DNA of 64,000 nucleotides from a virus (Duplodnaviria; Caudoviricetes): the IMG/VR virus record IMGVR_UViG_3300032285_001531. One strand, written 5' to 3'. The notes under the pieces are model-generated. The model was not told the DNA's origin and searched no databases. It worked only from the letters and a program-made list of their open reading frames with translations. Each line of letters begins with the position of its first letter. Position 1 is the stretch's first letter. Of the stretch, positions 18,101 through 38,628 are shown piece after piece. The position numbers and the translations under genes were made by a program.

Positions 18101-21100
18101 AATCCACCAACATTCGTGTCATCTGGAAATAACTATGGTGTTTACACAGGTGACGTAAACAGTGCCGGATTAGATTATGCACTCAGTGATACTATCATTA
18201 TATTGGGAACATCTTTAGGCGGTACTAGTCCAGCAAATGACTGTACTATTCTTGTAACTTCTGTAGGGGTAGACGGGTCAATATTAGGTATAGAGGTATC
18301 AGGTATACCACCAACAGTATATCAAGCTAGTTTACAGGGATCAACAGTTAAAATATTATCAGTAACAACTGAATCAGGAACAGGTGATACTCTGGTATCA
18401 TTAGACTATGCCAATAGCTCTTTATATCCAGCAGTTATTTCAGGAGCACAAGTATATTTTTATAAATCTACACATTTAACACCTTATGTTTATGATGATA
18501 CTATAAATGACGGGGCTGTGATTTGGATTTACAGTCCTAGATTATTTGGTTTATCAGTAAGTAATCAGTACTATATTGAAATCAAAGATGCAGGTATTAT
18601 TTACTCTACTGGAGATACTATTACTATTACCGGAGATTTATTGGGTGGAACTTCACCGGCTAATGATTTAATAATTACAATTACATATGCTGATCCTGGA
18701 ACAGGGGCAATAGTTTTTTATTCTTTAAATGGTGTTACTGTTGACTTGTATGAATTATATTTTGTCAAACCAATAAATTCTACTCAGGTTAAATTATACA
18801 CATCTTCTACATTATTATCACCGGTTATAGGATCAATTGATTTTACTACAAATGACGTTGTATTCTATCCTGAACCAATTGCAGGTAAACCTGGTTATAG
18901 TCAACCAATGATTTCGTTAGTTGCATACAATAATAAACTGTATCGTTGCATTGAAAGTAATACTGATACAGAGTTTGACTACGCTAAATGGGAATTATTA
19001 TACAGTGATGATCCTATGATTAATGCATTGGATAGAACATTAACATACTATCAGCCTACTGAAAGTATGCCAGGTAAAAACTTACCTTTATTAATGAGTG
19101 GGTTAGAATACCCAAATAGTACATATACTGGAAATAAGTTTGATCAGGCTATCACACTTGATGTTATACTAAATGACAAACCTTTCTATCCTAGCAATAT
19201 TGATGTTGCTGCAATTGTATGGGATGGAAATCAATTTGTAGCTGTTGGCAATACAACTAAGTATGTTATTCAAGAAGTTTTAAATGCTACCGCTTCTTTG
19301 AATGTAAACGTAGTATATGTAGAATTACCATACGCATATGACAGCATTAAAAAGGTTTCGGTATTTAATGCCACTAGAAATATAACGGTTAGCTCAGATA
19401 ACGTAGAATTAGTATTAACAGATACTTATCCTCAGTTAATATTTACTAATCAAGTATTAGAAGGTGACACATTAGTTATCACAACTTATTTTGGTGATAA
19501 TGAAGGTTACAGTATTGTTCTTCATAGCTCTAATGGAGTAGATTGGTCATTCAAAAAACTCAGTGATCAATTCTTAGATGTAAAAGATATTATATATTCA
19601 GGCTCGTTCTACGTGGTTGCAACAAACAATATCGATACTCCATTAATTATAAGTTATGATTCATATTCTTGGACTAGTGTTGGATCCTACACTGGTTATG
19701 ATATTTTTGAATATGACTCCGCAGGATTTGATACTGCTTCAGTTCAATCACCTAAGGATCAATTGAATAGTGTAGCATATTATAACAACCAGTATGTTTC
19801 TGTTGGTAAGAATATTCTATCAAGTATTAATGCCACTACATGGGATCAATCATTTAGTTTTGGATCAAGACTTACAAATACAATTAAATCTGTAAGCTAC
19901 ATAAACGGAACCTATCCAGCATTCAACGGATTTATTGCTGTTGGTTACGGTGATACTGTTACTGGAAATGAAAACACGCCTTACCCTAATATTGTACAAT
20001 ATACTAGAGTACTATTAAGCTATGATGGGATAAACTGGAACAATGTGTTCACTGGTCTACAATCTAAATGGTCGGTAGTATTTGGATCAGATACTACTAT
20101 CATAGCTGCTAGTGAAAATGGTGAAATATATTACAGTAACAATGGTTCTAACTGGGTACAAGCTACTATTAATGGAGCTCCGGTTACAGCTTCATTTAAT
20201 CATGGTATATTTGCAGCAAATAATTACATTCTTGTTGGTGATAAGGGCACAGTGGTATATAGTGCAGACGGTATAACTTGGACACAAGTTCCTTCAATAT
20301 CAAATAATAATTTACGTAAAATTTCATACAATGGCTTATATTCTAATGCTTCATATTTTATAGTAGTAGGTGATAAATCAACGATATTAAAGAGCGCCAA
20401 CTTACAAAATTGGGAAAATGAAACTTATATTAATACTGAGGATACTTTCTACGCTGTTAAAGGAGATCCTTTCTTATCAGGATATGGTCCGGAAGAATTA
20501 GTTCCTGGATTGATATATGATAATTTAAGTATGGTAGTAAGAAGCACACCTGGCTCATTATGGGATCCACTAGAATACAATAACTATGGTTTCTTTATGA
20601 AAGGAAAAACTGTAGTTTATGACGGTAATCAAGTAGTTGAGTTAGAGGACGGAACTACTCAATTCAGTTTTGCTGATTTAATGCTAAATCCTGCTCAAGT
20701 TGCAGTTTATACAATAGACGTTCAAAACTATGATCAGGCTACAAGAATATATGAAGTAAACTCTGTGGATAATCCTACTGCAGTAACAATCATAGAATCT
20801 ATCGACTGGGTTAATAAAACAGTAACTATTTCTTCTGGTTTTAACTACGGAGCATATAATATATATGTTGAAGTATATGGAGTAGGTGCAGGTAATCAAC
20901 AAGCCAAAGGTAGTTCAGATAGCGTACCTGTATATTATGATAGTAAGTTGGATGTAAGTTACATTGAAACTGATTACCCATATGATCCTAATGCATACTT
21001 AGTACCGTTAGTATATGTTAATGGAATTAAGAAAACATTTAATGTAGATTATGTGATAGTTCCTAGTTTCAATTCATCTATACAAATTCAATTTAATAGT

Positions 21101-25640: not shown

Positions 25641-25946
25641 ATGGAAATAAACAAACTACTATCAGAAACCAAAGCTAGATTTGAACACAATTTAGCTAAA
25701 TCATATTTAAAAGAAAAATATCAAAATAGTTTAATTTTCGCAGACCAAGGTGGTTTGTGGAAAGCCTCACCAGAATTACTTTCACTACTTGAGACTAGTA
25801 GTGCTGAAACAGTGATTCTAATAGATACATATGACAATCCAGTTAAAGTTAACAGAGATTCTTTACTACAAAAAGCCTATACCATTTATTTAAATGCGAC
25901 AGAAGAATATTACAACGAGTGGGTTGAGTTAAGAAAGCAACGATGA
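25641..25946 (+). CDS. Hypothetical protein, first gene of the glycosyltransferase/radical-SAM cluster
   Basis: 101 aa; ATGA-coupled to the next gene. Confidence 0.6.
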   Translation: MEINKLLSETKARFEHNLAKSYLKEKYQNSLIFADQGGLWKASPELLSLLETSSAETVILIDTYDNPVKVNRDSLLQKAYTIYLNATEEYYNEWVELRKQR

Positions 25947-26716
25947 CTAAAGGTGTATTACTATTTGCCTTTAACACACCAGAAGTTGATTATGTTAAAA
26001 TGGCTAACATATCTGCAGAACGAGTTAATCGTTTTTTAAACTTGCCTGTAACTTTAATAACAGATACCACTCCTAAGTTAGACAACTATAAATTTGACCA
26101 AATAGTATTATTAGACAGTGATAATTCTAATATAAAAGGCAATAAAGTTTGGAAAAATAAAGGCAGATATAATGCATTTGATTTATCCCCGTACGATGAA
26201 ACACTCTTGTTAGATGTTGATTATATAGTAAACTCAAATCAATTAAACAAGGTTTTTGATTTTTATGATGATTTTTGTTGTCATAGAACTACACACTTTC
26301 TAATGCAAACCAATTCTGAAGAAGAATTTATGGGAACACACAGTCAGCAAATACTATGGGCAACTGTAGCATTCTTTAAAAAAACAACTCGCATGAAATT
26401 ATTTTTTGATTGTGTAAAAATGGTACAAGAAAATTATACTCATTATGTTAATTTACACGGTATGCTGTCTATTACATTTAGAAATGACTATGCATTTACT
26501 ATAGCAAATAGAATTATAAATGGGCATATTGATGATCCTACAGACTTCATTCCGTGGAATCTAACACATGTTGGTAAGGATGTTACAGTGGTTAGAGAGT
26601 CTGATGCTGAGTATAGATTATATTCTAAGAAAGCAAAAAAGTCATTTATAAAAATAAAAGATTTTGACTTTCATATGTTGGACAAAGAAAACTTTATGGA
26701 GCTGTTTAATGAATAA
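25943..26716 (+). CDS. GT-A fold glycosyltransferase-like protein
   Basis: N-terminal GVLLFAF strand and DxD motif TLLLDVDY; paralogous to the next gene. Confidence 0.6.
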   Translation: MTKGVLLFAFNTPEVDYVKMANISAERVNRFLNLPVTLITDTTPKLDNYKFDQIVLLDSDNSNIKGNKVWKNKGRYNAFDLSPYDETLLLDVDYIVNSNQLNKVFDFYDDFCCHRTTHFLMQTNSEEEFMGTHSQQILWATVAFFKKTTRMKLFFDCVKMVQENYTHYVNLHGMLSITFRNDYAFTIANRIINGHIDDPTDFIPWNLTHVGKDVTVVRESDAEYRLYSKKAKKSFIKIKDFDFHMLDKENFMELFNE

Positions 26717-27479
26717 GGGCTTTGTTATAATGGCACAAAATACAGAATTAACTGATTACGTAAAATGTGCAACTGTATTATCCGACAGTATTAAACGTGT
26801 TATGCCAGATGCTAATGTTACTATTATAACAACAGATATGTTACCGCATGGGGATTTAGCTCCTAATAGTGATTGGAAACTAGTCAATGATTGGCAAGTA
26901 TATGAAGCAAGCCCATACGAGTATACAATAAAATTAGAAGCAGATATGTATATACCTCGCAGTATTGATTATTGGTGGGATATATTAAAAGATAGAGAAG
27001 TGGTAATATCTAGTACAATAAGAAATTTTAAACAGGATATTAATGAGAATAGGGCTTATAGACAATTCATCTATAATAATAATTTGCCCAATGTGTACAA
27101 TGCAATTACATATTTTAAAAAATCTGAACTAGCAGAAAACTTTTTTAAAACTGTTAAACAAGTATTTGATAATTGGGAAGAATTTAAAAACATATTGAAA
27201 TGCAAACCTGATGAAGTTGCAACGACTGATTGGGCATATGCAATTGCATGCCATTTGCACGGAGAAGAAAATACAACAATGCCTATCTTTACAGACATGA
27301 GCATGGTTCATATGAAAAAATTTATAAATCGTCTTTATGGTGAAGATTGGACAAATGAACTAGTGTATGAAATTAATCCTAATTGCTTGCGTATTAATAC
27401 TTTCCCCCAAATATATCCATTTCACTATCATATTAAAGATTTTGCAACTATAATAGAAGATGCACATGCAATTACCTGA
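26709..27479 (+). CDS. GT-A fold glycosyltransferase-like protein (paralogue of the upstream gene)
   Basis: Start moved to MNKGFVIM at 26709 (GGAG RBS, overlaps the upstream stop); YEASPYEYTIKLEADM aligns with FDLSPYDETLLLDVDY of the upstream gene. Confidence 0.55.
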   Translation: MNKGFVIMAQNTELTDYVKCATVLSDSIKRVMPDANVTIITTDMLPHGDLAPNSDWKLVNDWQVYEASPYEYTIKLEADMYIPRSIDYWWDILKDREVVISSTIRNFKQDINENRAYRQFIYNNNLPNVYNAITYFKKSELAENFFKTVKQVFDNWEEFKNILKCKPDEVATTDWAYAIACHLHGEENTTMPIFTDMSMVHMKKFINRLYGEDWTNELVYEINPNCLRINTFPQIYPFHYHIKDFATIIEDAHAIT

Positions 27480-27747
27480 ATTTAGACTCTACTATGATGA
27501 TAATGGTGATGTATTATTCTACACCTGTGAAAAACCAGAGGGTAAATATATCGTTATAGATTTAATGACATATCATGCTTGTAGACATGATGTTAAAGTA
27601 ATGGATGGGAAATTAGTTAGTAAGTCAATATTGGTATACATTTCTAAAATAGTTCATGGACATAAAGGAACATCCTGTCACAAAGATGATGTTAGCATAG
27701 TTTATGACAGCAGTGATTCAATTAAATGGCAATTAAAATATGAGTGA
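27460..27747 (+). CDS. Hypothetical protein
   Basis: 95-aa ORF overlapping both neighbours; the real start may be MQLPEF at 27466. Confidence 0.55.
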   Translation: MHMQLPEFRLYYDDNGDVLFYTCEKPEGKYIVIDLMTYHACRHDVKVMDGKLVSKSILVYISKIVHGHKGTSCHKDDVSIVYDSSDSIKWQLKYE

Positions 27748-28684
27748 CGTAATTGAAATAGCAGACCTAGATTGCATTTATCTAAGTTATGATGAACCAC
27801 AAAAAGAAGAATTTTGGGTAAAGATTCAAAACATGGTGCCATGGGCACGTAGAGTAGATGGAGTTAAAGGTAGTGATGCAGCACACAAAGCAGCCGCAGA
27901 AGCCAGCGATACTGAACGATTCATATTGATTGACGGTGACAACATTCCTAATTTTGATTTCTTTAATCTTAAATTAGATTTCACAAATAAAGACCCTAGT
28001 TACAAACAAGCACAGTATCGTTGGAGAGCAGTAAATGCTATCAATGGACTACGATACGGTAACGGTGGTATTAGTTCATGGACTAAGACTTATGTAGAGA
28101 ACATGCGCACACATGAAAATAGCGATGGAGGTGCATCGACCACTGTTGATTTTTGTTTAGACAGTAGCGATAACTTGTATTGGAGTATGTATGATTGTTA
28201 TTCAACTACATATCCTAACTACACACCATTCCAAGCATGGCGTGCCGGGTTTCGTGAAGGTGTAAAGATGTGTCTAGTAAATGGTGTAAAGCCTAGTGTT
28301 GATGAATTCAAGCAAAAAGTTGCAACTAGAAATATGGATAATCTTACTATATGGCATAATGTAGGTATGGATGTTGAGAACGGTAATTGGGCTATTCTAG
28401 GCGCACGTATGGGAACGTATATGACTATGATGACAGATTGGGATAATAATCAAGTTCAATGGTTCGATAACTTTATCACAATGTGGGAAGAATGTAAAGA
28501 TAAGGATCCTATACGTGAATCAACATTATTTGGTGCAGCACTTATGGATAAATTAGGGTTACCTACAGCTACGTTGAGTAAAGAACAAAGTAAATTTTTC
28601 AAACGACACTATATGGCAGACAAACACAACTTGGGGCCATTAGTACGTGAGATGGACGTGATACGAAAGATAGAAGGTTGGTAA
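27740..28684 (+). CDS. Glycosyltransferase-like protein
   Basis: DCIYLSYDEP..WARRVDGVKGSDAAHKAAA..FILIDGDN has a GT-A-like core with DxD; homologous to the C-terminal domain of 31020-32567 (W[R/K]TAFRE/WRAGFRE motif). Confidence 0.5.
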   Translation: MSDVIEIADLDCIYLSYDEPQKEEFWVKIQNMVPWARRVDGVKGSDAAHKAAAEASDTERFILIDGDNIPNFDFFNLKLDFTNKDPSYKQAQYRWRAVNAINGLRYGNGGISSWTKTYVENMRTHENSDGGASTTVDFCLDSSDNLYWSMYDCYSTTYPNYTPFQAWRAGFREGVKMCLVNGVKPSVDEFKQKVATRNMDNLTIWHNVGMDVENGNWAILGARMGTYMTMMTDWDNNQVQWFDNFITMWEECKDKDPIRESTLFGAALMDKLGLPTATLSKEQSKFFKRHYMADKHNLGPLVREMDVIRKIEGW

Positions 28685-30024
28685 TGAAAATAAAAACTAT
28701 ATTCAAAAATTTATATAGAAAAGTAAGAGTAAAGCTAATAAGGATACAAAAAACAGTGATAGATAAACCTGACTTATCTAATAAATTATGTGCAGTGCCT
28801 TGGATGCACTTAAATTTTGAACCTAATGGCAAAGTAGTTCCTTGCTGTCTTACATCAACTTATAATTATTTTGCAGGAGATTTAACAAAGCAAAGCATTA
28901 ATGATATTTGGAATAGCGGGAATATGAAAGATTTGCGCATTCAAATGATGAACAATGTAGAGCCTGAAATCTGCAGAAAATGTTATGATAAAGAAAGAGT
29001 AACAGGAGAAAGTGGAAGAACATATCACAATCTTGAGTTCAAAAGTGTATTAAAACAGATACCAGTTATTACTAAGTCTGATGGTACTTGTACTAAGATG
29101 GAATTAAAATATTGGGATTTTAGATTTAGTAATTTATGTAATCTGAAGTGTCGCAGTTGTGGTCCGCGCTATAGTTCTGCGTGGGTGCCTGATGCTAAGA
29201 AATTAGGATATGCCGATCAGGAAAAAGTATGGAATATTGAATCAGTAGGTACTACTCCTAATTATGATTTTCTTAAAGAGCAAGTAGAGTATGTTGAGAA
29301 AATATATTTTGCAGGTGGTGAACCTTTATTGATGCCTGAGCATTGGCAGATACTAGACTTATTGGTACAAAATAGAAGATTCGATGTAAAATTATCATAC
29401 AATACAAACTGCACGACTTTAACATACGGTAAAAAGAATATCGTAGATTATTGGGGGCAATGGGAGTTTGGTAAGATAGAAGTATGGCCAAGTTTAGATG
29501 AAATAGATAATCGTGCTGAACTTGTGCGTAGCGGTACTGATTGGAAAAAAGTAGAAGAAAATCTAAAAGAACTCAATGAACTAGACAATATAATTGTGCG
29601 ACCTGGAATAACAGTAGGAGTGTTCAATGTGTTTAGATTGCCGCAAATAATTAATAGACTAGTAGAACTAAATGTTATAAATGAACGACATTGGTATAAA
29701 AACTTTTTTATTAATTTGTTAGAAGATCCAAAGCACTATCATGTTCATGTGCTGCCGGATGAATTTAGACAAAAAACGATAACAGATTTAAACAATTTTG
29801 TCAATGATTATAATAAAAAGTATAGTACTGATATTAGTCCTCACTTCAAACAGATATTGTTTGAATTGACTAGACCTTACAACAGCAAAGCAGCTAAAGA
29901 TTTTTTACGAGTTACTGGAGAAGTTGATAGGATACGCAATGAAGATACATTTGCTACCATTCCAGAATTACATGTTATTAGAATGAAATATCCAAACATA
30001 TATGAAACTGCAAAGAATATATAG
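28684..30024 (+). CDS. Radical SAM protein with an N-terminal SPASM/twitch-like Cys cluster
   Basis: CxxxCxxC motif CNLKCRSC, GGEP, N-terminal CAVPW..PCC..C..C; start placed at the TAATG overlap at 28684. Confidence 0.85.
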   Translation: MKIKTIFKNLYRKVRVKLIRIQKTVIDKPDLSNKLCAVPWMHLNFEPNGKVVPCCLTSTYNYFAGDLTKQSINDIWNSGNMKDLRIQMMNNVEPEICRKCYDKERVTGESGRTYHNLEFKSVLKQIPVITKSDGTCTKMELKYWDFRFSNLCNLKCRSCGPRYSSAWVPDAKKLGYADQEKVWNIESVGTTPNYDFLKEQVEYVEKIYFAGGEPLLMPEHWQILDLLVQNRRFDVKLSYNTNCTTLTYGKKNIVDYWGQWEFGKIEVWPSLDEIDNRAELVRSGTDWKKVEENLKELNELDNIIVRPGITVGVFNVFRLPQIINRLVELNVINERHWYKNFFINLLEDPKHYHVHVLPDEFRQKTITDLNNFVNDYNKKYSTDISPHFKQILFELTRPYNSKAAKDFLRVTGEVDRIRNEDTFATIPELHVIRMKYPNIYETAKNI

Positions 30025-31030
30025 AAACGAAAATCACAATCAGTCATTTTTTGTAGTAGACTGGATGCTACATGATCGTTGCACATATGATTGTAGCTAT
30101 TGTCCTCCCGGTAATAAACAGGGCATTGACACATGGCTAAATCTTTCTACGTTAAAAGAGTTTTGCGATGAATTAGAAAAACACGCAGCAAACGTTGATC
30201 CAAACACTAAGATACTTGCTAATTTCTCTGGCGGGGAACCAACAGTTTGGAAACACTTCCCTGAATTATTAGATGCATTAACACAACGAGGATGGTTAAT
30301 TTCAATCAGTACTAATGGTAGTAGAAGTATAAACTGGTGGAAAGAGAATGCACACAAGCTTACAAGAATAAACTTAAGCTATCATACTGAATCTGTTGTT
30401 GATGATGAATTTTTAGAAAAAGTAAGGGTGTGTGAAGAATACTCACAAACAAGTGTTAATATTATGCTTAATCCTGATCCTAAATTATTTGGTAAAGCTG
30501 TTAATTTTAACAAAAGAGTGTTGGCTGAAACATCTAAAGCAGGAGTGCATAATCATCAAATACAGCACAATTTTGGTATGCAAACTATTATGGTTCCGTA
30601 TTACACTAAAGCACAAAAAGAAATAATGTCAACATTACCAGATAGATATCCTGCTGTACATCCTGATCAAGTTCATATACGTCATAACTATTTTCACAGC
30701 ACAATATATGGTGTTAAGAAAAGTACTGATGGCAGCACACTTATTGATAAACAACTAGTTAATTTTGAAAACTGGATTTGCTCCGCTGGTATTGAAGGAG
30801 TTTTTGTTGATTCTGCAGGCAGAGTAAGTAGAGGTACTTGTAGAATGGGAGGAGAACTAGGTAATATACAAGAACCAAATAAAATAAATTGGCCTACTAC
30901 TCCTGTATTGTGTAAAAAGGATTGGTGCGGTTGTATAACAGATATATTAAAAAGTAAACACGATACTAAGAAATTTACACTAACTGAAAGAATAAAAGAT
31001 TTTATTATGGATGTAAAGAATGGACGCTGA
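30002..31030 (+). CDS. Radical SAM protein with a C-terminal twitch-like domain
   Basis: CTYDCSYC, FSGGEPT, STNGS; C-terminal C..G..C...C..WC.C. Confidence 0.85.
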   Translation: MKLQRIYRNENHNQSFFVVDWMLHDRCTYDCSYCPPGNKQGIDTWLNLSTLKEFCDELEKHAANVDPNTKILANFSGGEPTVWKHFPELLDALTQRGWLISISTNGSRSINWWKENAHKLTRINLSYHTESVVDDEFLEKVRVCEEYSQTSVNIMLNPDPKLFGKAVNFNKRVLAETSKAGVHNHQIQHNFGMQTIMVPYYTKAQKEIMSTLPDRYPAVHPDQVHIRHNYFHSTIYGVKKSTDGSTLIDKQLVNFENWICSAGIEGVFVDSAGRVSRGTCRMGGELGNIQEPNKINWPTTPVLCKKDWCGCITDILKSKHDTKKFTLTERIKDFIMDVKNGR

Positions 31031-32567
31031 ATTAAAAAGAAGAATGGAACTTTGGAAACAAGGTACATGGGAAATTCCTGAAGATTTAGATACTAGTAAT
31101 TTCGATTTTACTTGGAGACCATTTCATTTTGATAGACCATATATACATCAATTTGGTACACAGCATCAAAAGACAGGTGGCCCTAGATTTATTGTTCCTG
31201 ATAATGAAGGAGTAAAGTATCAGGATTATCAAATAGCAATTAAGTTACCTAACAAAAATAATCGGTGTTGGAGACCATTAGTACCTAATGCTGAGATTGA
31301 TTTTAGTTGGCATCCTGATGATAACGATCCTCCCTTTATACATGTGTTCGGCAATCAATGGTATGATGGTGTAGATATGCCCACGTATCAATATCGTGTA
31401 GCCGGAGCTACTGAAAAGAAGTATGAACATAATCTAAAAGCAAAGTTATTACCTAATCCTTCAAATAGAGGGTTTAGACCATTAAAAATTATAAGTGACT
31501 TTGATTATAGTTGGGTACCGCACCCCAAAGATCCTCCCTTTATATACGTGTTTGGTAATCAATGGTATGATGCTACTGAGATGCCAACACTTGAGTATAG
31601 AGTTAAAGATGCTGTAACTAGAAAGTTTGTAACACATCCTAAAGCTACTCTTAAAATTGAAAAAGTAAAGCTAGAAGATTGTTTACACCATATGGTAATA
31701 GATACAAAATTCAATACAAAGTATATTCACTTTGGTAGTGCAACAGTTGATTATTCAGAAGTAATACCAGAGGATGATTTGTATATACACATCATTGATA
31801 ATGTAGAAGCTATTGTACCTAAAGAAGCTAAATCATTCATATATTCAACACTGTTAGATTATCCTCATATAAAATATCATACATGCGGAATCAAAGCAGT
31901 GCCATTAGACATTATATTTTTAAGTAATGGTGAAGAAGGAGCTGAAGAAAACTATCAGCACTTATTAAGATTGACAAAAAACTTACCTAATAATGTTATT
32001 AAAATAGAGGGTGTTAAGGGTCGTGTTGCTAGTCAACATGAAGCTGCAAAACAAAGTTCAACTGCTTGGTATTTTTTAATTAATGCTAAATTGCGTGTTG
32101 ATGACAATTTTGATTTTAGTTGGCAACCTGATTATTTAGATACAAGTAAGCACTATATTTTTAGAGCAAAAAATATTGTTAATGGATTAGAATATGGTCA
32201 TATGGCTATAGTAGCGAACAATAAAAAAATCACATTAGAGACATTAGGAACAGGTCTTGACTTTACATTAGATGGAAAGTTTGAGATTGTTGATATTAAT
32301 TCAGGAGTAGGGGTATTCAATACCAGTGAGTGGGATACTTGGCGTACTGCATTTAGAGAAGCGATTAAACTTAGACATTCAAATGATCCGGATTCTATAA
32401 AAAGATTACAAACATGGCTTACTGTAGCAGAAGGTGAGTTTGCCCAAATATCTATGCAGGGTGCCGCTGATGCTGTAAAGTATTATGAATCAGTAGAAGG
32501 TGACTTTCAGAAGTTAAAACTTAGTTACGATTGGGATTGGCTAAAAGAGAGATTCCAACATAAATAA
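31020..32567 (+). CDS. Repeat-containing glycosyltransferase-like protein
   Basis: Repeated FD[F/Y]SW.P...DPP.I.VFGNQW modules; the C-terminal domain (DIIFLSNGE..GVKGRVASQHEAA..WRTAFRE) is homologous to 27740-28684. Confidence 0.5.
   Translation: MDAELKRRMELWKQGTWEIPEDLDTSNFDFTWRPFHFDRPYIHQFGTQHQKTGGPRFIVPDNEGVKYQDYQIAIKLPNKNNRCWRPLVPNAEIDFSWHPDDNDPPFIHVFGNQWYDGVDMPTYQYRVAGATEKKYEHNLKAKLLPNPSNRGFRPLKIISDFDYSWVPHPKDPPFIYVFGNQWYDATEMPTLEYRVKDAVTRKFVTHPKATLKIEKVKLEDCLHHMVIDTKFNTKYIHFGSATVDYSEVIPEDDLYIHIIDNVEAIVPKEAKSFIYSTLLDYPHIKYHTCGIKAVPLDIIFLSNGEEGAEENYQHLLRLTKNLPNNVIKIEGVKGRVASQHEAAKQSSTAWYFLINAKLRVDDNFDFSWQPDYLDTSKHYIFRAKNIVNGLEYGHMAIVANNKKITLETLGTGLDFTLDGKFEIVDINSGVGVFNTSEWDTWRTAFREAIKLRHSNDPDSIKRLQTWLTVAEGEFAQISMQGAADAVKYYESVEGDFQKLKLSYDWDWLKERFQHK
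32561..32566 (+). promoter_or_regulatory. Late promoter (TAAATA), probably leaderless; could also drive the tmRNA
   Basis: TAAATA-agtgt-ATG with no SD. Confidence 0.5.
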
Positions 32568-32571
32568 GTGT

Positions 32572-32742
32572 ATGACACTTATTTGGGTATTACTAGTATT
32601 TGTAACTAATGACGGAGAATGGCGTGAATGGAACTCCTTTACCCGTGAGAGTGAGTGTTTGGAAGTAGCAAGAGTAATCACACATCACCGTGAAGATAGT
32701 ATTCAAGCTATGTGTGTAGCAAAACCAGTTATTAGTTCTTAA
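32572..32742 (+). CDS. 56-aa small protein absent from the ORF track (MTLIWVLLVFVTNDGEWREWNSFTRESECLEVARVITHHREDSIQAMCVAKPVISS)
   Basis: Translated by hand; hydrophobic N-terminus and two Cys; fills the gap between the late promoter and the tmRNA. Confidence 0.6.
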   Translation: MTLIWVLLVFVTNDGEWREWNSFTRESECLEVARVITHHREDSIQAMCVAKPVISS

Positions 32743-33000
32743 AGAATTGTTGTAATTCCTTCAAAGTGAAGGCATTCTGGACGCGGGTTCGACTCCCGCC
32801 TGGTCCACCATAAGAGCATACTGTGTTTTTATGATGGGCTAGACATGGTTTCGACAGGGTGAGATAATAGAGAAGGCAACACAGTAGGCGATGACTGTAA
32901 ATCAAGCAAAATTAGTATCTGCAAACGATGATACATATCTATTAGCCGCAAACGGCTAATTAGCGGGGCAACTATGCCTTGTTACCAAAAATAGTAATAG
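32743..33000 (+). ncRNA. ssrA: Circularly permuted (two-piece) tmRNA
   Basis: The 3' tRNA-like half (GCGGG-TTCGACT-CCCGC T-arm, CTGGTCC-A-CCA ending at 32810) precedes the 5' half GGGCTAG at 32836. The acceptor stem carries the G3-U70 Ala identity pair; CAGGGTG/CATTCTG form helix 2; tag ORF 32921-32959 is preceded by the conserved UA at -5/-4. Outer ends are approximate. Confidence 0.9.
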
Positions 33001-33017
33001 GAGCTTCGGCTCCTATT
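32996..33017 (+). terminator. Rho-independent terminator after the tmRNA
   Basis: AATAGGAGC-TTCG-GCTCCTATT followed by TATTT. Confidence 0.75.
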
Positions 33018-33024
33018 TATTTGG

Positions 33025-33050
33025 ATAAAAGGCTCTTCGGAGCCTTTTAT
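33025..33050. terminator. Bidirectional terminator
   Basis: ATAAAAGGCTC-TTCG-GAGCCTTTTAT at the junction of convergent transcription units. Confidence 0.8.
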
Positions 33051-33970
33051 TCTATGAATTCTATTTTTTCTAGGTTATTAAAGATGTAGTTTTGTAGTGG
33101 CATAGATGTATGTGCTACAAAGCCAATTGGAAATTCTAATGGTAGTGCATCAATCACTAACTTATGACCTTCTACCCAATGATTAAATTCTGCAGATTGA
33201 TAAATCTTTTTTCTGTTTACATTAGTATCAATTAAAAATCCACCATGCGAACCTAATCTACCAGTACAATCTTTTGCTAATAAATCATCATGGTCATAGA
33301 AACTCTGCATTATTGATTTGCCTAACATTGAACTATTCAATAAAACTAAGTTTTCTTCTGTACGTTCCATAAAAGAATAATTTAGTTTCTGCTCATCATC
33401 AGCGAACTCTAACCAAATGGGCATATCTACATTGGGTAAAGCACCAATTGCATATATAGGATAGTTATCATCAACAAATTTAGAATTTAATAAATTAGAA
33501 GTAAAGTTCTCTAGAATACATATTGAGTTATTGATAGGTTGTAAGATATTGTACCATGTTTTGTAACTCATATCTTTAGGGAATATGAATTTAGGATCAA
33601 AAGGATTAAGTACTGCATCTTTCTGTAGATACCATAACATATTGTACGTGTAGAATCTATTAATTTTGTTTAGTGTTTGTTGCTTATAATCAAATTCTTC
33701 AGGTATATCAAAGGGCATAATATATCCCAATGATTCTAATTGTCTCATGCTACGTGCTACTGTTTTCCAACTATTCTTATACGTGAATGTTTCAAACACT
33801 GTTCTTCTGCGTATTGATTTATCGTAGGATGCTTCTAAATGACGTATCCCGTATGAATCATAAATGGGTTTAAAATGTTTAAACCACTTGACCACTACAG
33901 GATCGTTATACAGCTTTATAATTATATGTTTTTTAGTTAAAAAAGATTTGTACGTTAATATCAGTTGCAT
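33047..33970 (-). CDS. Hypothetical protein
   Basis: 307-aa ORF; no motif recognised. Confidence 0.65.
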   Translation of the reverse strand: MQLILTYKSFLTKKHIIIKLYNDPVVVKWFKHFKPIYDSYGIRHLEASYDKSIRRRTVFETFTYKNSWKTVARSMRQLESLGYIMPFDIPEEFDYKQQTLNKINRFYTYNMLWYLQKDAVLNPFDPKFIFPKDMSYKTWYNILQPINNSICILENFTSNLLNSKFVDDNYPIYAIGALPNVDMPIWLEFADDEQKLNYSFMERTEENLVLLNSSMLGKSIMQSFYDHDDLLAKDCTGRLGSHGGFLIDTNVNRKKIYQSAEFNHWVEGHKLVIDALPLEFPIGFVAHTSMPLQNYIFNNLEKIEFIE

Positions 33971-33971
33971 A

Positions 33972-34613
33972 TTATTTTTTCATTAGTTCATTTACAAATT
34001 CTAGTAATAAGTCATGCTGACCACCATGCCACTTATTCTTCATCCATGAATACATAGTATACCAGTTTTCTTCTGCTTCAGGATGACAGCCCATGATTCC
34101 AATTCTGCCTTGAAATATAGCCATTGGGTCACCGTTTGCGTAAGTAGCGTAGGTTTCAAATTTAGTTCTGTCGCCTTCTAATGCGCATCCATCGTAGAAG
34201 AACATGGTCATATCTTTGCCGTTCCAATTGATAGAGATGTCTTTTGCATGTGGTCTGCGTGTATCTGTGTTGGGTTGAGTAATATATTGTACTGCATCTA
34301 CACTGTCTAGTATATCAAAATAATGTGATCCTGCCCAATATGCACCCATACAAATACCCAAATATCTACCGCCTCTTGCCACAAAGTCACGTATTCTAGG
34401 AGCATGATGTTTCATCAAATAATGCCAACTTTCACTGTCTCCGTCACCCCCAGGGAAGGCTACGATATCTACATCATCAAAGAAATCATCTTCAATTTGG
34501 TGCCAAGTGAACAATTTTAGATTAAAATGAGTAGAAAAAGCCTTAATCATTCCGTTGGCACACTGCACCGAACAACGGGGTTGATGTATGAATAAAGCTA
34601 TTGTAGGTTTCAT
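33972..34613 (-). CDS. Class I glutamine-amidotransferase-like (BPL_N-type) protein
   Basis: DIVAFPGG, GGRYLGICMGAY (nucleophile-elbow Cys) and GCHPEA (His-x-Glu). Confidence 0.75.
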   Translation of the reverse strand: MKPTIALFIHQPRCSVQCANGMIKAFSTHFNLKLFTWHQIEDDFFDDVDIVAFPGGDGDSESWHYLMKHHAPRIRDFVARGGRYLGICMGAYWAGSHYFDILDSVDAVQYITQPNTDTRRPHAKDISINWNGKDMTMFFYDGCALEGDRTKFETYATYANGDPMAIFQGRIGIMGCHPEAEENWYTMYSWMKNKWHGGQHDLLLEFVNELMKK

Positions 34614-34620
34614 ATACAGC

Positions 34621-34626
34621 TATTTA
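34621..34626 (-). promoter_or_regulatory. Late promoter (TAAATA), probably leaderless
   Basis: Minus strand gaTAAATA-gctgtat-ATG(34613) with no SD. Confidence 0.55.
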
Positions 34627-34688
34627 TCGGATAAAAAGTTACTGGTTACGAGTTCCAGTGACACTCTATAAGCGTGTCCGATTTAAGT

Positions 34689-35399
34689 TTAATTCCAGTA
34701 CGTACTATTGTCTAGTTTGTTCCAGTATTCTATATTGTTACGATTTATAAAGTTTTTGATGAGGTACGCAGCCATTCCAAAATAGCCCATTTTCTTAAAT
34801 CTGCGTGAATCCTGTCCAAAGTAATGTTTGATGATTTTGAATTTTTTCGGACTATACATTCTGGATAGGAAATAATCTTCAGAGGTCGAGAACTTTTCAG
34901 GGAACCCACCAAATTCTTCAAACTTGTCTCTACGAGTGAGCATGAACGCACCCACAGCAAATGGGCTAAAATATTTTAGAACACTATTAACTAAATTAAA
35001 GATACTAAAGCCAATAGCTGTTCTCCAATCATCATCGTAACACATGATATTCAATCCAACTAAATCTAAGTTATTACTTTCAATTTCATTAACTGCATCT
35101 TGTATAACATATTTGCTGAAAAAACGGACATCAGCATCAATAAACAAAATATATGGAGTAGTAACTAATCTTGCTCCGTTGTTCTTAGCGACACTAACAG
35201 GACCACCATCTATGATTTCTATATTTAAAAAAGCACTATTGTCTTTTATAACTTGTCTGGTATTGTCTGTAGAACAATCAGCAATAATAATTCTAGTACC
35301 ACCTAGCTCCTGTAAGCGCAGGGAATCAATTAAATGATAAATGTAATTTTCTTCATTTTTGCAAGGAACTACAATTGTAATTTTTTCACTTAGTTTCAT
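34689..35399 (-). CDS. Family 2 glycosyltransferase
   Basis: ITIVVPCKNEE, IIIADCSTDNT, ILFIDAD (DxD) and SED motifs. Start moved to MKLSEK at 35399, which is ATGA-coupled to the hidden ORF. Confidence 0.85.
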   Translation of the reverse strand: MKLSEKITIVVPCKNEENYIYHLIDSLRLQELGGTRIIIADCSTDNTRQVIKDNSAFLNIEIIDGGPVSVAKNNGARLVTTPYILFIDADVRFFSKYVIQDAVNEIESNNLDLVGLNIMCYDDDWRTAIGFSIFNLVNSVLKYFSPFAVGAFMLTRRDKFEEFGGFPEKFSTSEDYFLSRMYSPKKFKIIKHYFGQDSRRFKKMGYFGMAAYLIKNFINRNNIEYWNKLDNSTYWN

Positions 35400-35569
35400 A
35401 TTTTTTTTACGCATTTACCTTCAATCTTAAATGATTCAAATTTTACCCAATAAGCCATGCTTCTTAGACTTTGTTCGCAACTTTGTTGATCTGGAAAATC
35501 CATTGTCATTTTCGCTGGAATGTCCTTTGGATCGTTTATGTGTACCGCTATCAATATCATCAACCACAT
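35396..35569 (-). CDS. Hidden 57-aa protein (MWLMILIAVHINDPKDIPAKMTMDFPDQQSCEQSLRSMAYWVKFESFKIEGKCVKKI)
   Basis: GGAG RBS 7 nt before the ATG; its TGA overlaps the GT2 start (ATGA); overlaps the last 134 nt of the phosphoesterase gene in another frame. Confidence 0.65.
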   Translation of the reverse strand: MWLMILIAVHINDPKDIPAKMTMDFPDQQSCEQSLRSMAYWVKFESFKIEGKCVKKI

Positions 35570-36320
35570 TATCTGTCTCCTGTGTCCAAGTTACAATCTC
35601 CCACTTACCATTGTGATGTTCTACAAGTGCAGTCATTGATTCAACCCAATCACCGTCGTTCATATAAACGACACCATCTACTTCTTTTATCTCTGCATGA
35701 TGTATATGACCACATATAACACCATCAAATCCTCGCTTCTTACAATACTGTGCTAAGTTCTTTTCAAACTGGAACATAAAGTCTATGGCTCGTTTGACTT
35801 TTCCTTTAAGATACTTAGAAAGGCTCCAATAACCAAAACCCATCCTATGACGGATCCAATTAAATCGAGTGTTGAGAGCAAGGACGAAATCATAGGCTTT
35901 ATCTCCTAATATTGAAAGCCAAGGTGCTAGTCTTGTGATTCCATCAAACAAGTCACCATGCACTACTAAGTAATGCTTACCATCTACACCTATATGTTCT
36001 ATTTGATTGGTAATCTCTAGCATACCAAATCCTAAACCATAATGCATAAAAGGTCTTAAGAACTCGTCATGGTTACCTGCTACGTATACAACTCGTGTAC
36101 CACGTTTGCTATGACCAAGTATTCTACGTATCACATTACTATGACTTTGTTTCCAGCGCCACTTGTTTTGTTTAATCTTCCAAGCATCAATGATGTCACC
36201 AACAAGGTATAATGTTTCGCAACTGTTATTCTTTAAGAAATTGTTTAGTGCTTCTGCTTTACAGTCTTTAGTACCTAAATGTACATCACTGATAAAAATA
36301 CTGCGATAAGTCTTATTCAT
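35436..36320 (-). CDS. plcP: PlcP-like metallophosphoesterase (phospholipase C of the LpxH/calcineurin-like superfamily)
   Basis: FISDVHLG, LVGDIID, GNHDEFLR, HGDLFD, LGDKAYD, GYWSLS, GVICGHIH and NDGDWVES match the PlcP/UDP-2,3-diacylglucosamine-hydrolase-like family. The upstream Pho box and downstream GT favour PlcP over LpxH. Confidence 0.75.
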   Translation of the reverse strand: MNKTYRSIFISDVHLGTKDCKAEALNNFLKNNSCETLYLVGDIIDAWKIKQNKWRWKQSHSNVIRRILGHSKRGTRVVYVAGNHDEFLRPFMHYGLGFGMLEITNQIEHIGVDGKHYLVVHGDLFDGITRLAPWLSILGDKAYDFVLALNTRFNWIRHRMGFGYWSLSKYLKGKVKRAIDFMFQFEKNLAQYCKKRGFDGVICGHIHHAEIKEVDGVVYMNDGDWVESMTALVEHHNGKWEIVTWTQETDNVVDDIDSGTHKRSKGHSSENDNGFSRSTKLRTKSKKHGLLGKI

Positions 36321-36338
36321 GTTATTATCCTATATAAT

Positions 36339-36373
36339 TATTTAATAGGAATTGTGTGACAATAATATGACAA
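36339..36373 (-). promoter_or_regulatory. Pho box promoter for plcP-orf57-GT2
   Basis: Minus strand TTGTCAT-ATTA-TTGTCAC (36373-36356, 11-bp period), a 10-nt spacer, then TTAAATA. Confidence 0.8.
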
Positions 36374-36380
36374 ACCGTAA

Positions 36381-36404
36381 AAAAAGGCACCTAAGTGCCT
36401 TTTT
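36381..36404. terminator. Rho-independent terminator after the porin gene
   Basis: AAAAAGGCAC-CTAA-GTGCCTTTTT. Confidence 0.8.
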
Positions 36405-36422
36405 ATTTTGCTCTAAATTAGA

Positions 36423-37547
36423 TTAGAAGCGATGCTGAATGCCAACTGCAAATGCACGTTGACTTAAAGCACTGTCACCAAAGTTTGAGCCACCACCATC
36501 TGGTACCCAACGATCATAAACAGTAAATGGTGCTGCTGCGTTTGCATTGCGGTTAGCAACTACATAGTCAGCGAACACTTCTGTACGCTTGCTGAATGCA
36601 TAAACTGCACCAACTGCATACATCTTAACATCATCTTTACCTGCTGTTACTTGGTCTTGTACATTGTAGTAACCACCGTTAACACTTACACGATCGGTAA
36701 CTTTGTACTTCGCACCAGCAAACCAAGTACGTGCATCAGTCTTACCGTCAGCTTTCGATGAGCTTGCACGGAATGCTGTTAGTGTATTTGGATTGTTAGT
36801 GATAACATAACCAGCGTTAACTAGTAAAGCATCAGTAACATTATACTTTGCTGCAACTAAGTCGATCTTTTCATCAACGTTAGCATTGGTTAAACGAACT
36901 TCTTCGTGTGTATATGCTACTTCTACTGGACCTGCTGTATACTTACCACCAATGTTGTAGCTGCTCTTTGAAGTAGTATCATTTAACTGATTACCAAAAC
37001 TATAAGAACCATCAACAACTAAGCCACCAAAGCTTGGTGATGTATAGCGAACCATGTTATCAAAACGTGATACGCCTGAACCACTATAGAAACCAGCATA
37101 ACGTGCGATTGGCTTTAAGCCACCGAAGTTCCAGTTGCCACGTGAATCAAATTCATCAAGTACGTTGTACAAGAAGTTCTTGCCACGACCTAATTGAATC
37201 TGACCAAATGAACCAGCTAGGGCTACATTTGCTTCACGATCAAATACTGTGGTTGAACCTGCACCGCCACTGCCTGAATCTTTACCAATTCCGCCAGTAC
37301 GTAGACTCAAGTTACTTTCTAAGTTAAACTTAGCTGTCATACCGTCGCCTAGGTCTTCTACACCTTTGAAGCCTAACCGATTGCTGCTGTGTAACTGTTC
37401 ACCGAAACCAGTGAAGTCACTGTTAGCTGAAGTGAAACCACTACCGCTAACTACACCTGCACCCAACAAACCATAAACGGTAACGTTCTGTGCCTGTGCA
37501 ACACCAGCCATAAGCATAAGTGCTGCTACTAATTTTGTTACTTTCAT
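36423..37547 (-). CDS. Gram-negative trimeric porin (betaproteobacterial Omp32-like)
   Basis: Signal peptide ending AQA; NVTVYG, RLGFKGVEDLGDGMTAKFNLE, FDREANVAL.G.FG.I.LGR, N.V.Y.SP.FGG, Y.FSKRT; C-terminal GIQHRF; ATGA-coupled to pstS. Confidence 0.9.
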   Translation of the reverse strand: MKVTKLVAALMLMAGVAQAQNVTVYGLLGAGVVSGSGFTSANSDFTGFGEQLHSSNRLGFKGVEDLGDGMTAKFNLESNLSLRTGGIGKDSGSGGAGSTTVFDREANVALAGSFGQIQLGRGKNFLYNVLDEFDSRGNWNFGGLKPIARYAGFYSGSGVSRFDNMVRYTSPSFGGLVVDGSYSFGNQLNDTTSKSSYNIGGKYTAGPVEVAYTHEEVRLTNANVDEKIDLVAAKYNVTDALLVNAGYVITNNPNTLTAFRASSSKADGKTDARTWFAGAKYKVTDRVSVNGGYYNVQDQVTAGKDDVKMYAVGAVYAFSKRTEVFADYVVANRNANAAAPFTVYDRWVPDGGGSNFGDSALSQRAFAVGIQHRF

Positions 37548-38551
37548 TTTACTTCTCCTAAGTTAAATTTAGACCATACATTCTTAACTATGGCAACTAC
37601 CTCTTTTGGTAGAGGAACATAGTCAAGTTCTACAGCCATCTTTTCTCCATTGTTAAAAGACCAATTGAAAAATTTTAAAACAGCTAATCCGACCGCAGGA
37701 TCGGCTTGCTGCTTATGCATGATTATATACGATGCACCTGTAATGGGCCAAGCATTCTGGTTAGATTGGTCTGTTAATATAACAGCCATACCAGGTGAAT
37801 TAGCCCAATCAGCACCTATTGCTGCTGCTTTGAATGTATCGTCATCAGGTTGAATCCATTTGCCTGCTTTGTTCTTTACTTGAACATGTGCAATTTTATT
37901 CTTTTTGGCATATGCGTATTCTACATAGCCAATTGCACCTTGCAGTCTTTGTGCGTTTGCAGCAACACCTTCGTTACCTTTGCCGCCTACGCCTGTTGGC
38001 CATTTAACTGCTGTACCTGAACCAACCTTTTCTTTCCATTCAGGAACTGTTTTGCTTAACCAGTCAGTGAACAAAAATGTTGTGCCTGAACCATCAGCAC
38101 GATGTAGTACAGTGATATCCATATCAGGAAACTTAACTGTTGGGTTTAGTTCTTTGATACGAGGATCAGTCCACTTAGTGATTTTGCCTAAGTATATAGC
38201 AGCAATTACATCTGCTGTTAATTTTATTTGCCCAGGCTGAATGCCAACTAGATTTACAACTGGAACTACTCCACCGATAATAGCTGGGAATTGAACTAAA
38301 CCTTCTTTGTCTAGTTCTTCTTGTTTCAACGGCATATCACTTGCACCAAAATCTACTGTTTTAGCTTTGATTTGTTTAATACCACCACCTGAACCAATTG
38401 ATTGATAATTAAGACCTATCCCTGTTTGGGCTTTATATGCTTCTGCCCATTTAGAATAGATTGGATAGGGGAATGTTGCTCCTGCTCCTGTGATGTCTGC
38501 TGCAAATGACGTACTTGACAGAATTACAAGTACTGCGAATAATTTTTTCAC
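37544..38551 (-). CDS. pstS: Phosphate ABC transporter substrate-binding protein PstS
   Basis: Signal peptide; ITGAGATFPYP.Y.KW, YQSIGSGGG, DFGASD, RADGSGTT, GGKGNEGV, WPITG; GTG start with AAGGAG RBS. Confidence 0.95.
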   Translation of the reverse strand: MKKLFAVLVILSSTSFAADITGAGATFPYPIYSKWAEAYKAQTGIGLNYQSIGSGGGIKQIKAKTVDFGASDMPLKQEELDKEGLVQFPAIIGGVVPVVNLVGIQPGQIKLTADVIAAIYLGKITKWTDPRIKELNPTVKFPDMDITVLHRADGSGTTFLFTDWLSKTVPEWKEKVGSGTAVKWPTGVGGKGNEGVAANAQRLQGAIGYVEYAYAKKNKIAHVQVKNKAGKWIQPDDDTFKAAAIGADWANSPGMAVILTDQSNQNAWPITGASYIIMHKQQADPAVGLAVLKFFNWSFNNGEKMAVELDYVPLPKEVVAIVKNVWSKFNLGEVK

Positions 38552-38593
38552 GTGTGTGTCTCCTTTTAAATATTCATGTATAATTGCACTAAA

Positions 38594-38628
38594 TATTTAA
38601 TGGCCGCAGTATGACAACTGTGTTACAA
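38594..38628 (-). promoter_or_regulatory. Pho box promoter for pstS-porin
   Basis: Minus strand TTGTAAC-ACAG-TTGTCAT (38628-38611, 11-bp period), a 10-nt spacer, then TTAAATA. Confidence 0.75.

Follow-up and report, generated by a model that had tools for sequence, protein, structure and literature searches.

In marine bacteria, the plcP gene is followed by agt, and the roles of both genes have been established by deletion, complementation and heterologous expression (PMC4796936); the plcP-then-agt arrangement has also been described in Burkholderia cenocepacia (PMC13691135). Known bacterial examples of this PlcP-Agt system include SMc00171 of Sinorhizobium meliloti, MED193_17359 of Phaeobacter sp. 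MED193, PB7211_983 and PB7211_960 of Pelagibacter HTCC7211, and BCAL2364-2365 of B. cenocepacia. In operon types 3 and 5, a processive glycosyltransferase, Pgt (Mesorhizobium loti/Agrobacterium), makes glycosyl-diacylglycerols downstream of plcP (PMC4796936). Here, we analyzed a stretch of 64 000 nucleotides (nt) from a tailed phage (IMG/VR record IMGVR_UViG_3300032285_001531; hereafter, the window), in which a metallophosphoesterase gene is followed on the minus strand by a gene for a glycosyltransferase of family 2 (GT2). This operon is real, intact and widespread in phages. We estimate a probability of roughly 0.6 that it encodes a PlcP-based renovation of phospholipids to glycolipids, with the GT2 replacing Agt. 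A lipid-remodelling function had been proposed in an initial annotation of this locus, and each testable part of that proposal held, as judged by the clade of the phosphoesterase, the alternation of glycosyltransferases in one slot, the pairing of the two genes and the promoter.

We examined the association between the two genes across phages. At least ~600 IMG/VR contigs encode a phosphoesterase 73-85% identical to that of the window, and the best 80 of these matches provided the viral loci counted throughout this study. Thousands of metagenomic proteins were 75-90% identical, and no cellular genome exceeded 70% identity to the phosphoesterase among the matches listed. Directly downstream of the phosphoesterase (within 400 nt; gaps of 13-184 nt), 35 of the 80 viral loci contained a glycosyltransferase of family 4 (GT4) resembling Agt and 33 contained a GT2 of the window's type, while seven had neither and five reached the end of the contig. 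Four of the seven loci with neither type contained a GT4 past the 400-nt limit (three at ~1 kb and one at ~0.4 kb). The best NCBIfam matches of the viral GT4 proteins were lipid glycosyltransferases. The GT2 and GT4 types were interspersed on the phosphoesterase tree, and at least six switches between them were forced by well-supported branches. In the reverse test, the phosphoesterase lay directly upstream in 69 of the 70 informative viral GT2 loci and ~1 kb away in the remaining one. Moreover, the pair was adjacent and overlapping in two distant phage lineages, in which the identities of the phosphoesterase and GT2 were 46/49% and 44/44%, respectively. The alternation in one slot, the nearly invariable pairing and its retention in distant lineages together provide strong evidence that the phosphoesterase and the GT2 work in one pathway, in which the GT2 takes over the function of Agt. 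The proposal that a GT2 stands in place of Agt is thus well supported by the alternation and the pairing, and we infer the acceptor of the enzyme from its position, as discussed below.

In one distant lineage (contigs L128, positions 3132-4533, and L129, positions 3874-5269), a shorter PlcP-type enzyme of 228-230 amino acids overlaps a GT2 of the same family; the thymidylate synthase gene of L128 is interrupted by an intein. The top cellular matches of the phosphoesterase were short, viral-looking contigs in metagenomic bins. Four contigs of 2.7-22 kb (L006, L007, L013 and L218), which are filed under Gammaproteobacteria, Bacteroidia, Competibacteraceae and Crocinitomicaceae bins, contain the cassette in its viral form. 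A small overlapping gene, described below, is present in L006, L007 and L218; L013 encodes the viral-type enzyme and a GT4, and the small gene is absent. These four contigs are probably mis-binned phage DNA.

The core of the phosphoesterase (approximately residues 1-248) is followed by a basic tail that is disordered and varies in length. When the protein was aligned with 27 relatives, the motifs SDxHLG, GDIxD, GNHD, HGD, CGHIH, LGDxAY, YWSLS and YMNDGDWVE were invariant or nearly so, and residues D12, H14, D42, N83, H84, H121, H205 and H207 were invariant in all 28 sequences, indicating complete metal-binding motifs. The full metallophosphoesterase motif set with the LGDKAYD and GYWSLS segments, as read in the initial annotation, was recovered entirely within this open reading frame (ORF). 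The predicted structure had a predicted local distance difference test (pLDDT) score of 78, with values <50 in the tail (residues 249-294). The closest solved fold was LpxH (15-22% identity), with which the model has a helical insertion in common; the inserted helices (residues 134-196) are placed as in the LpxH lid that holds acyl chains. A fold of this type with a long helical insertion fits a lipid substrate. The metallophosphoesterase superfamily is catalytically broad, and GpdQ, Rv0805 and Mre11 appeared lower in the list of fold matches, so the protein might instead be a general phosphodiesterase acting on soluble substrates (glycerophosphodiesters, nucleotides or polyphosphate-like compounds), with the glycosyltransferase being functionally unrelated. 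However, the top fold matches were all LpxH, ahead by several orders of magnitude in E-value, and the lid helices and the strict pairing with a glycosyltransferase both speak against such an enzyme, which we regard as very unlikely.

We further considered whether the phosphoesterase is an LpxH-type UDP-2,3-diacylglucosamine diphosphatase, through which the phage would boost or alter lipid A synthesis. This is suggested by the automatic names in Joint Genome Institute records and in the records of Pelagibacter phage Mosig and Synechococcus phage S-SRM01, and by LpxH being the closest solved fold. However, the scores of the phosphoesterase against the NCBIfam LpxH equivalogs were far below the cut-offs (NF003743, 50 versus 134; TIGR01854, 39.3 versus 190.35). 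At the positions where the LpxH proteins of Escherichia coli and Parasalinivibrio show GNRD and GHTH, GNHD and CGHIH are found in the phage protein, which also contains inserted KWxW, LGDxAY, YWSLS and YMNDGDWVES segments that are extra relative to LpxH and common to its cellular relatives. In a tree of 91 proteins, LpxH was set apart with 100% support, and the viral proteins formed a clade (59 rows, 100% support) nested among alphaproteobacterial genes. Such relatives coexist with true LpxH, as in Parasalinivibrio latis, where a true LpxH (344 bits) is accompanied by a separate phage-type paralogue on the second chromosome, and they adjoin agt-like genes. In addition, phosphate-starvation control, for which the promoter gives indications (see below), would be unexpected for a housekeeping lipid A enzyme. 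We regard an LpxH function as very improbable.

The PlcP-type clade was defined by its place upstream of agt-like GT4 genes in Alphaproteobacteria. Most of these cellular genes have a GT4 within ~100 nt downstream, which shares 35-43% identity with the viral GT4, and a GT4 directly downstream was found in Kordiimonas, Croceicoccus, Roseomonas, Acetobacteraceae and Sphingomonadales. The neighbours of cellular plcP genes lacking a GT4 (HupE/UreJ, ergothioneine-type genes, GGDEF and DksA) were uninformative. On account of this synteny and of published descriptions, the phosphoesterase is very probably of the PlcP type rather than LpxH, as judged from its sequence. The initial annotation had called it PlcP-like, which agrees with the scores far below the LpxH cut-offs, the differing motifs and the placement in the tree with genes upstream of agt-like GT4 genes. 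The same type of enzyme is encoded by phage Mosig (MT647606.1, positions 94129-94866; 51% identity), where it lies beside pstS, and by phage S-SRM01 (36% identity). Both copies are annotated as UDP-2,3-diacylglucosamine hydrolase (LpxH-type), and this annotation is probably wrong.

We searched the window for regulatory sites and found a Pho-box-like promoter immediately upstream of the phosphoesterase gene (Table 1). The composite promoter pattern matched twice in 64 kb, compared with 0.00 matches expected, and the two-heptamer core likewise matched twice, compared with 0.06 expected. The second match precedes pstS, and none was found elsewhere in the window. Similar boxes were located 39-56 nt before the phosphoesterase ATG in ~24 related viral loci, and pstS was found within 6 kb of the phosphoesterase in 23 of the 80 loci. 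From these sequence patterns, the best explanation is that the cassette would be switched on by the phosphate-starvation regulator of the host. The shared promoter type and the proximity of pstS point to phosphate economy as the benefit for the phage. Alternatively, the main benefit might be a changed envelope rather than phosphate, in that glycolipid-rich membranes would affect grazing, the timing of lysis, the display of receptors or superinfection by other phages. Three papers link lipid renovation to phage attachment and predation trade-offs (PMC9804370, PMC9938194, PMC9457565). However, the operon has a promoter of the pstS type and adjoins pstS and a porin gene, and the proximity of pstS recurs in related loci; an envelope effect as the main benefit is accordingly unlikely, although the two benefits are not mutually exclusive.

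The initial annotation had also placed a GT2 gene next to the phosphoesterase gene, and its coordinates were correct. Counted from the first ATG, the GT2 ORF begins 21 nt past the phosphoesterase stop. The actual start is probably the sixth codon, at position 35399, which yields 236 amino acids, the commonest length among GT2 homologues. Among 52 sequences, D93-x-D95 and D180 were invariant, and E179 was kept in at least 90%. The structure model had a pLDDT of 95.5 and matched GT-A folds at E ~1e-11. The protein has no transmembrane segment, and it contains an amphipathic helix (residues 130-146) and a basic, aromatic C-terminus. The predicted protein is thus an intact, soluble GT-A glycosyltransferase, as read from the sequence and the model. 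It is not of the Agt type, in that it combines a GT-A fold with Glycos_transf_2, versus the GT-B fold and Pfam Glyco_transf_4/Glycos_transf_1 of Agt. Its best NCBIfam match, TIGR04283 (arsenosugar-associated GT2), did not reach the cut-off (60.8 versus 182 bits), and a secondary match to Pfam Glyco_transf_21 exceeded its own (33 versus 21.7 bits). No close relative of the GT2 was present in the cellular genomes scanned. PHROGs contained no family for the phosphoesterase or the GT2, and the best match of the latter there was a weak one to GtrB-like O-antigen conversion.

Several observations weigh against the proposed renovation pathway. The tree of 91 proteins does not contain the characterised PlcPs SMc00171, MED193_17359, PB7211_983, PA3219 and BCAL2364, and the clade is anchored by synteny and literature. 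Scans of species genomes with the window and Mosig enzymes returned no locus from Sinorhizobium, Phaeobacter, Pelagibacter, Pseudomonas aeruginosa or Burkholderia cenocepacia, and the matches among Swiss-Prot structure models included LpxH only and no PlcP. Phages Mosig and S-SRM01 carry the phosphoesterase without an adjacent glycosyltransferase, indicating that a phage can make use of the enzyme on its own. The Pho-box-like sites are matches to a consensus. Finally, the fold matches of the GT2, obtained from fold searches of PDB and Swiss-Prot and a profile search of PDB sequences, were generic GT-A enzymes with mixed acceptors (TarS/TarP, WrtF, AglE and the carotenoid lipid glycosyltransferase CrtQ), and its cellular relatives (33-38% identity) have unrelated neighbours and no adjacent phosphoesterase. 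Atlas feature matches of the GT2 to clusters that are CrtQ-like or bear GT21 serve as leads only.

The last two points would be compatible with a PlcP-type phospholipase accompanied by a GT2 that uses another envelope acceptor, such as the lipopolysaccharide core, polyprenyl phosphate, a teichoic-acid-like polymer or the head group that is released; regulation, and not a common intermediate, would in that case tie the pair together. The variety of acceptors among the nearest structures and Swiss-Prot models, the weak PHROGs match to O-antigen conversion and the absence of a neighbouring phosphoesterase in distant cellular relatives all favour this view. However, the GT2 and the Agt-like GT4 alternate at exactly one position, the GT2 almost never occurs without the phosphoesterase, the pairing is kept at 44-49% identity in other phage lineages, and the GT2 lacks the transmembrane helices of GtrB/ArnC-type enzymes. 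We therefore consider another acceptor unlikely. Diacylglycerol, to which the position of the gene and its alternation with the Agt-like GT4 point, is on balance the likelier acceptor of the GT2.

We found that a third, small gene of 57 codons overlaps both the phosphoesterase and GT2 ORFs (Table 1). Its TGA overlaps the GT2 ATG at 35399 as ATGA, which indicates translational coupling and supports the 236-residue form of the GT2. A full-length copy was present in all but one of the 80 viral loci (79), of the GT2 and GT4 types alike. An ATG start is found in 89 of the 91 distinct DNA versions, which are 56-61 codons long. The phosphoesterase stop wanders 35-140 nt into the small gene. The variability at the three codon positions of the small-gene frame was 0.84, 0.58 and 1.17, the third being highest, as for a coding frame. 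The possibility that the small ORF is an artefact was rejected by its conservation and this codon-position analysis. The phosphoesterase tail (residues 249-294) has the look of a second, weakly constrained frame over the small gene. The small protein has eight invariant positions, among them two cysteines. It matched no family, and a resemblance to DUF1482 (0.79) is a lead only; none of the cellular operons examined contained the small gene. That the protein is accessory to the phosphoesterase is a guess. The span originally marked for the cassette (34689-36373) does contain both enzyme genes and the Pho-box-like site, but the 57-codon gene and a structured RNA element next to the GT2 gene had gone unseen.

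The RNA element lies directly 3' of the GT2 stop and has the pattern AAAUCGG, helix 1, CUGGA-NYCGUAA-CCAG. In a covariation analysis of 40 sequences, 98% of cells were paired, compared with 25-39% in slid controls, and all five pairs of helix 1 changed on both sides. The element occurs as a single copy in the window (65.5 bits), and Rfam contained no family for it. It was found in ~50 related loci, always on the coding strand, either just before the phosphoesterase ATG or after a glycosyltransferase or porin gene. In the loci where it directly precedes the phosphoesterase, the Pho box was mostly lacking there. In other phages, a terminator hairpin often comes after the element, which may act in processing, stability or regulation or may be a junction at which modules are exchanged. 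A more speculative and, at present, doubtful extension of these observations is that PlcP, its 57-residue partner and an exchangeable GT2 or GT4 form a mobile three-gene module found in phages only, that the RNA element sits at the junctions of this module and either regulates the transcript or favours module exchange, and that the GT2 version yields a beta-linked glycolipid foreign to the host.

Under the renovation pathway that we favour, the host phosphate-starvation regulator would switch on the operon through the Pho-box-like promoter. The phosphoesterase would then be a phospholipase C that depends on Mn and works on the inner side of the cytoplasmic membrane, where phospholipids of the phosphatidylethanolamine and phosphatidylglycerol type would be cut to diacylglycerol and a phospho-head group. 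Phosphate freed from the head group by host phosphatases would feed the synthesis of phage nucleotides. The 57-residue protein would be produced by translation coupled to that of the GT2, with a conjectural accessory role to the phosphoesterase. The GT2 would glycosylate the diacylglycerol, so that a glycolipid bilayer free of phosphorus would keep the membrane intact. GT2 enzymes are inverting and form beta-linked products, and Agt is retaining and forms alpha-linked lipids; because of this inversion, the product of the phage GT2 would be beta-linked. Together with the pstS-porin unit, which has a promoter of the same type, the cassette would both bring in phosphate from outside and mine it internally. 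The phospholipase C activity, the GT2 acceptor and the gain for the phage are all inferred.

The window is a piece of a T4-like myovirus (~35% G+C), as indicated by a baseplate wedge protein, large terminase and thymidylate synthase, and the phage carrying the cassette is lytic and T4-like. An ORF of 5463 codons (6188-22579, plus strand) separates the baseplate genes from the structural genes that follow. In a nucleotide search of isolate phages, no megablast-level match was found, and low stringency returned only short pieces of pstS and of Mosig. The features around the cassette are summarized in Table 1. On the minus strand (33047-38628), the order is a Pho-box-like promoter, pstS, the porin gene, a terminator-like hairpin, the second Pho-box-like promoter, the metallophosphoesterase gene, the GT2 gene, a BPL_N gene and a gene for a protein of 307 amino acids without a family match, besides the small overlapping ORF. 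The hairpin separates the pstS-porin unit from the phosphoesterase unit. A 350-kb viral contig has pstS, a Porin_O_P porin, the phosphoesterase, a GT4 and BPL_N in the same order as in the window. Of the 80 viral loci, 43 contain a BPL_N-type homologue within 6 kb of the phosphoesterase; its side and strand vary, and this gene may belong to the same phosphate module. The BPL_N-like protein has a G-x-C-x-G nucleophile elbow.

Table 1. Positions of the cassette and neighbouring features in the 64 000-nt window
Feature	Position	Strand	Evidence or remark
Permuted transfer-messenger RNA, betaproteobacterial type	32703-33019	+	Rfam RF01850, 181 bits; RF04321, 134 bits
BPL_N/class-I glutamine-amidotransferase-like protein	33972-34613	-	Pfam BPL_N, E 1.9e-10
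Conserved two-hairpin RNA element, 53 nt	34638-34690	-	Directly 3' of GT2 stop, before BPL_N gene
GT2 (GT-A fold), 241 amino acids from first ATG	34689-35414	-	Pfam Glycos_transf_2 (PF00535), 77.3 bits versus cut-off 23.3, E 1.7e-21
Conserved small gene, 57 amino acids	35396-35569	-	+1 frame over phosphoesterase tail; overlaps phosphoesterase and GT2 ORFs
Putative PlcP-type metallophosphoesterase, 294 amino acids	35436-36320	-	Pfam Metallophos above cut-off, E 7.7e-12
Pho-box-like promoter	36339-36373	-	TTGTCAT-ATTA-TTGTCAC, 10 nt, TTAAATA; 19 nt before phosphoesterase ATG
Terminator-like hairpin	36379-36404	-	GGCAC-TTAG-GTGCC + T7, 3' of porin gene; sequence reading
Porin_4 outer-membrane porin	36423-37547	-	Between pstS and phosphoesterase unit
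pstS	37544-38551	-	NCBIfam PstS, 417 bits versus cut-off 339
pstS-porin unit, upstream of phosphoesterase	36423-38551	-	Own Pho-box-like promoter, 38594-38628

The betaproteobacterial type of the permuted transfer-messenger RNA and the sole cellular match of the phage porin, which came from a Burkholderiales bin (48% identity), indicate that the host is probably a Burkholderiales bacterium. That bin, possibly a relative of the host, contains a PlcP-type gene of its own (52% identity), which is followed by a gene for a major facilitator superfamily transporter and not by a glycosyltransferase gene. Just upstream of the transfer-messenger RNA (25943-32567, plus strand) lie two radical S-adenosylmethionine/SPASM genes and several unassigned genes (Pfam matches, 28678-31030).

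A phage plcP was not described in the full-text literature searched, which covered pelagimyophages, methylophages, amoC-phages and soil phage phosphate genes and excluded subscription journals. If the proposed pathway is confirmed, the phage would take phosphate built into the host membrane while the cell remains intact until lysis, which is a different strategy from the import or sensing of phosphate, and a lipid route would be added to the viral control of phosphorus cycling in phosphate-poor waters. Confirmation would also mean that the name "LpxH", under which these phage genes are widely annotated, needs correcting. The occurrence of two unrelated glycosyltransferase folds in one operon slot represents a natural experiment, and the new small protein and the new structured RNA are within experimental reach. 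Under the speculative extension given above, in which the host itself does not make the beta-linked glycolipid, infected cells in phosphate-poor lakes would have a virus-specific membrane lipid, which might serve as a chemical marker of infection.

The phage cassette resembles the bacterial PlcP-Agt system in that an LpxH-like metallophosphoesterase is followed directly by a glycosyltransferase, with phosphate-starvation control that is putative in the phage (Pho-box-like site), and in that sister phages carry an Agt-like GT4. It differs in its second enzyme, which is a GT2 (GT-A, inverting) and not a GT4 (GT-B, retaining), in its carriage by a lytic T4-like phage, and in the 57-codon gene between the two enzyme genes and the disordered basic tail of the phosphoesterase. 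Pgt belongs to CAZy family GT21. In the PlcP-Pgt arrangement, as in the phage, a GT-A-type enzyme instead of Agt comes after plcP, and the phage GT2 has the secondary Glyco_transf_21 match; however, its main match is Glycos_transf_2 (77 bits), and it is likened to Pgt by description only. With LpxH, the phage phosphoesterase shares the fold, the helical insertion and the metal-binding residues, whereas its low identity (15-23%), its scores below the family cut-offs, its other signature motifs and its separate clade set it apart. Finally, like pstS, phoH and phoA of cyanophages and pelagiphages and oprP of amoC-phages, the pair belongs to the host-like phosphate-economy genes carried by aquatic phages; however, those genes concern the import or sensing of external phosphate, whereas the pair described here would release phosphate bound in the host membrane.

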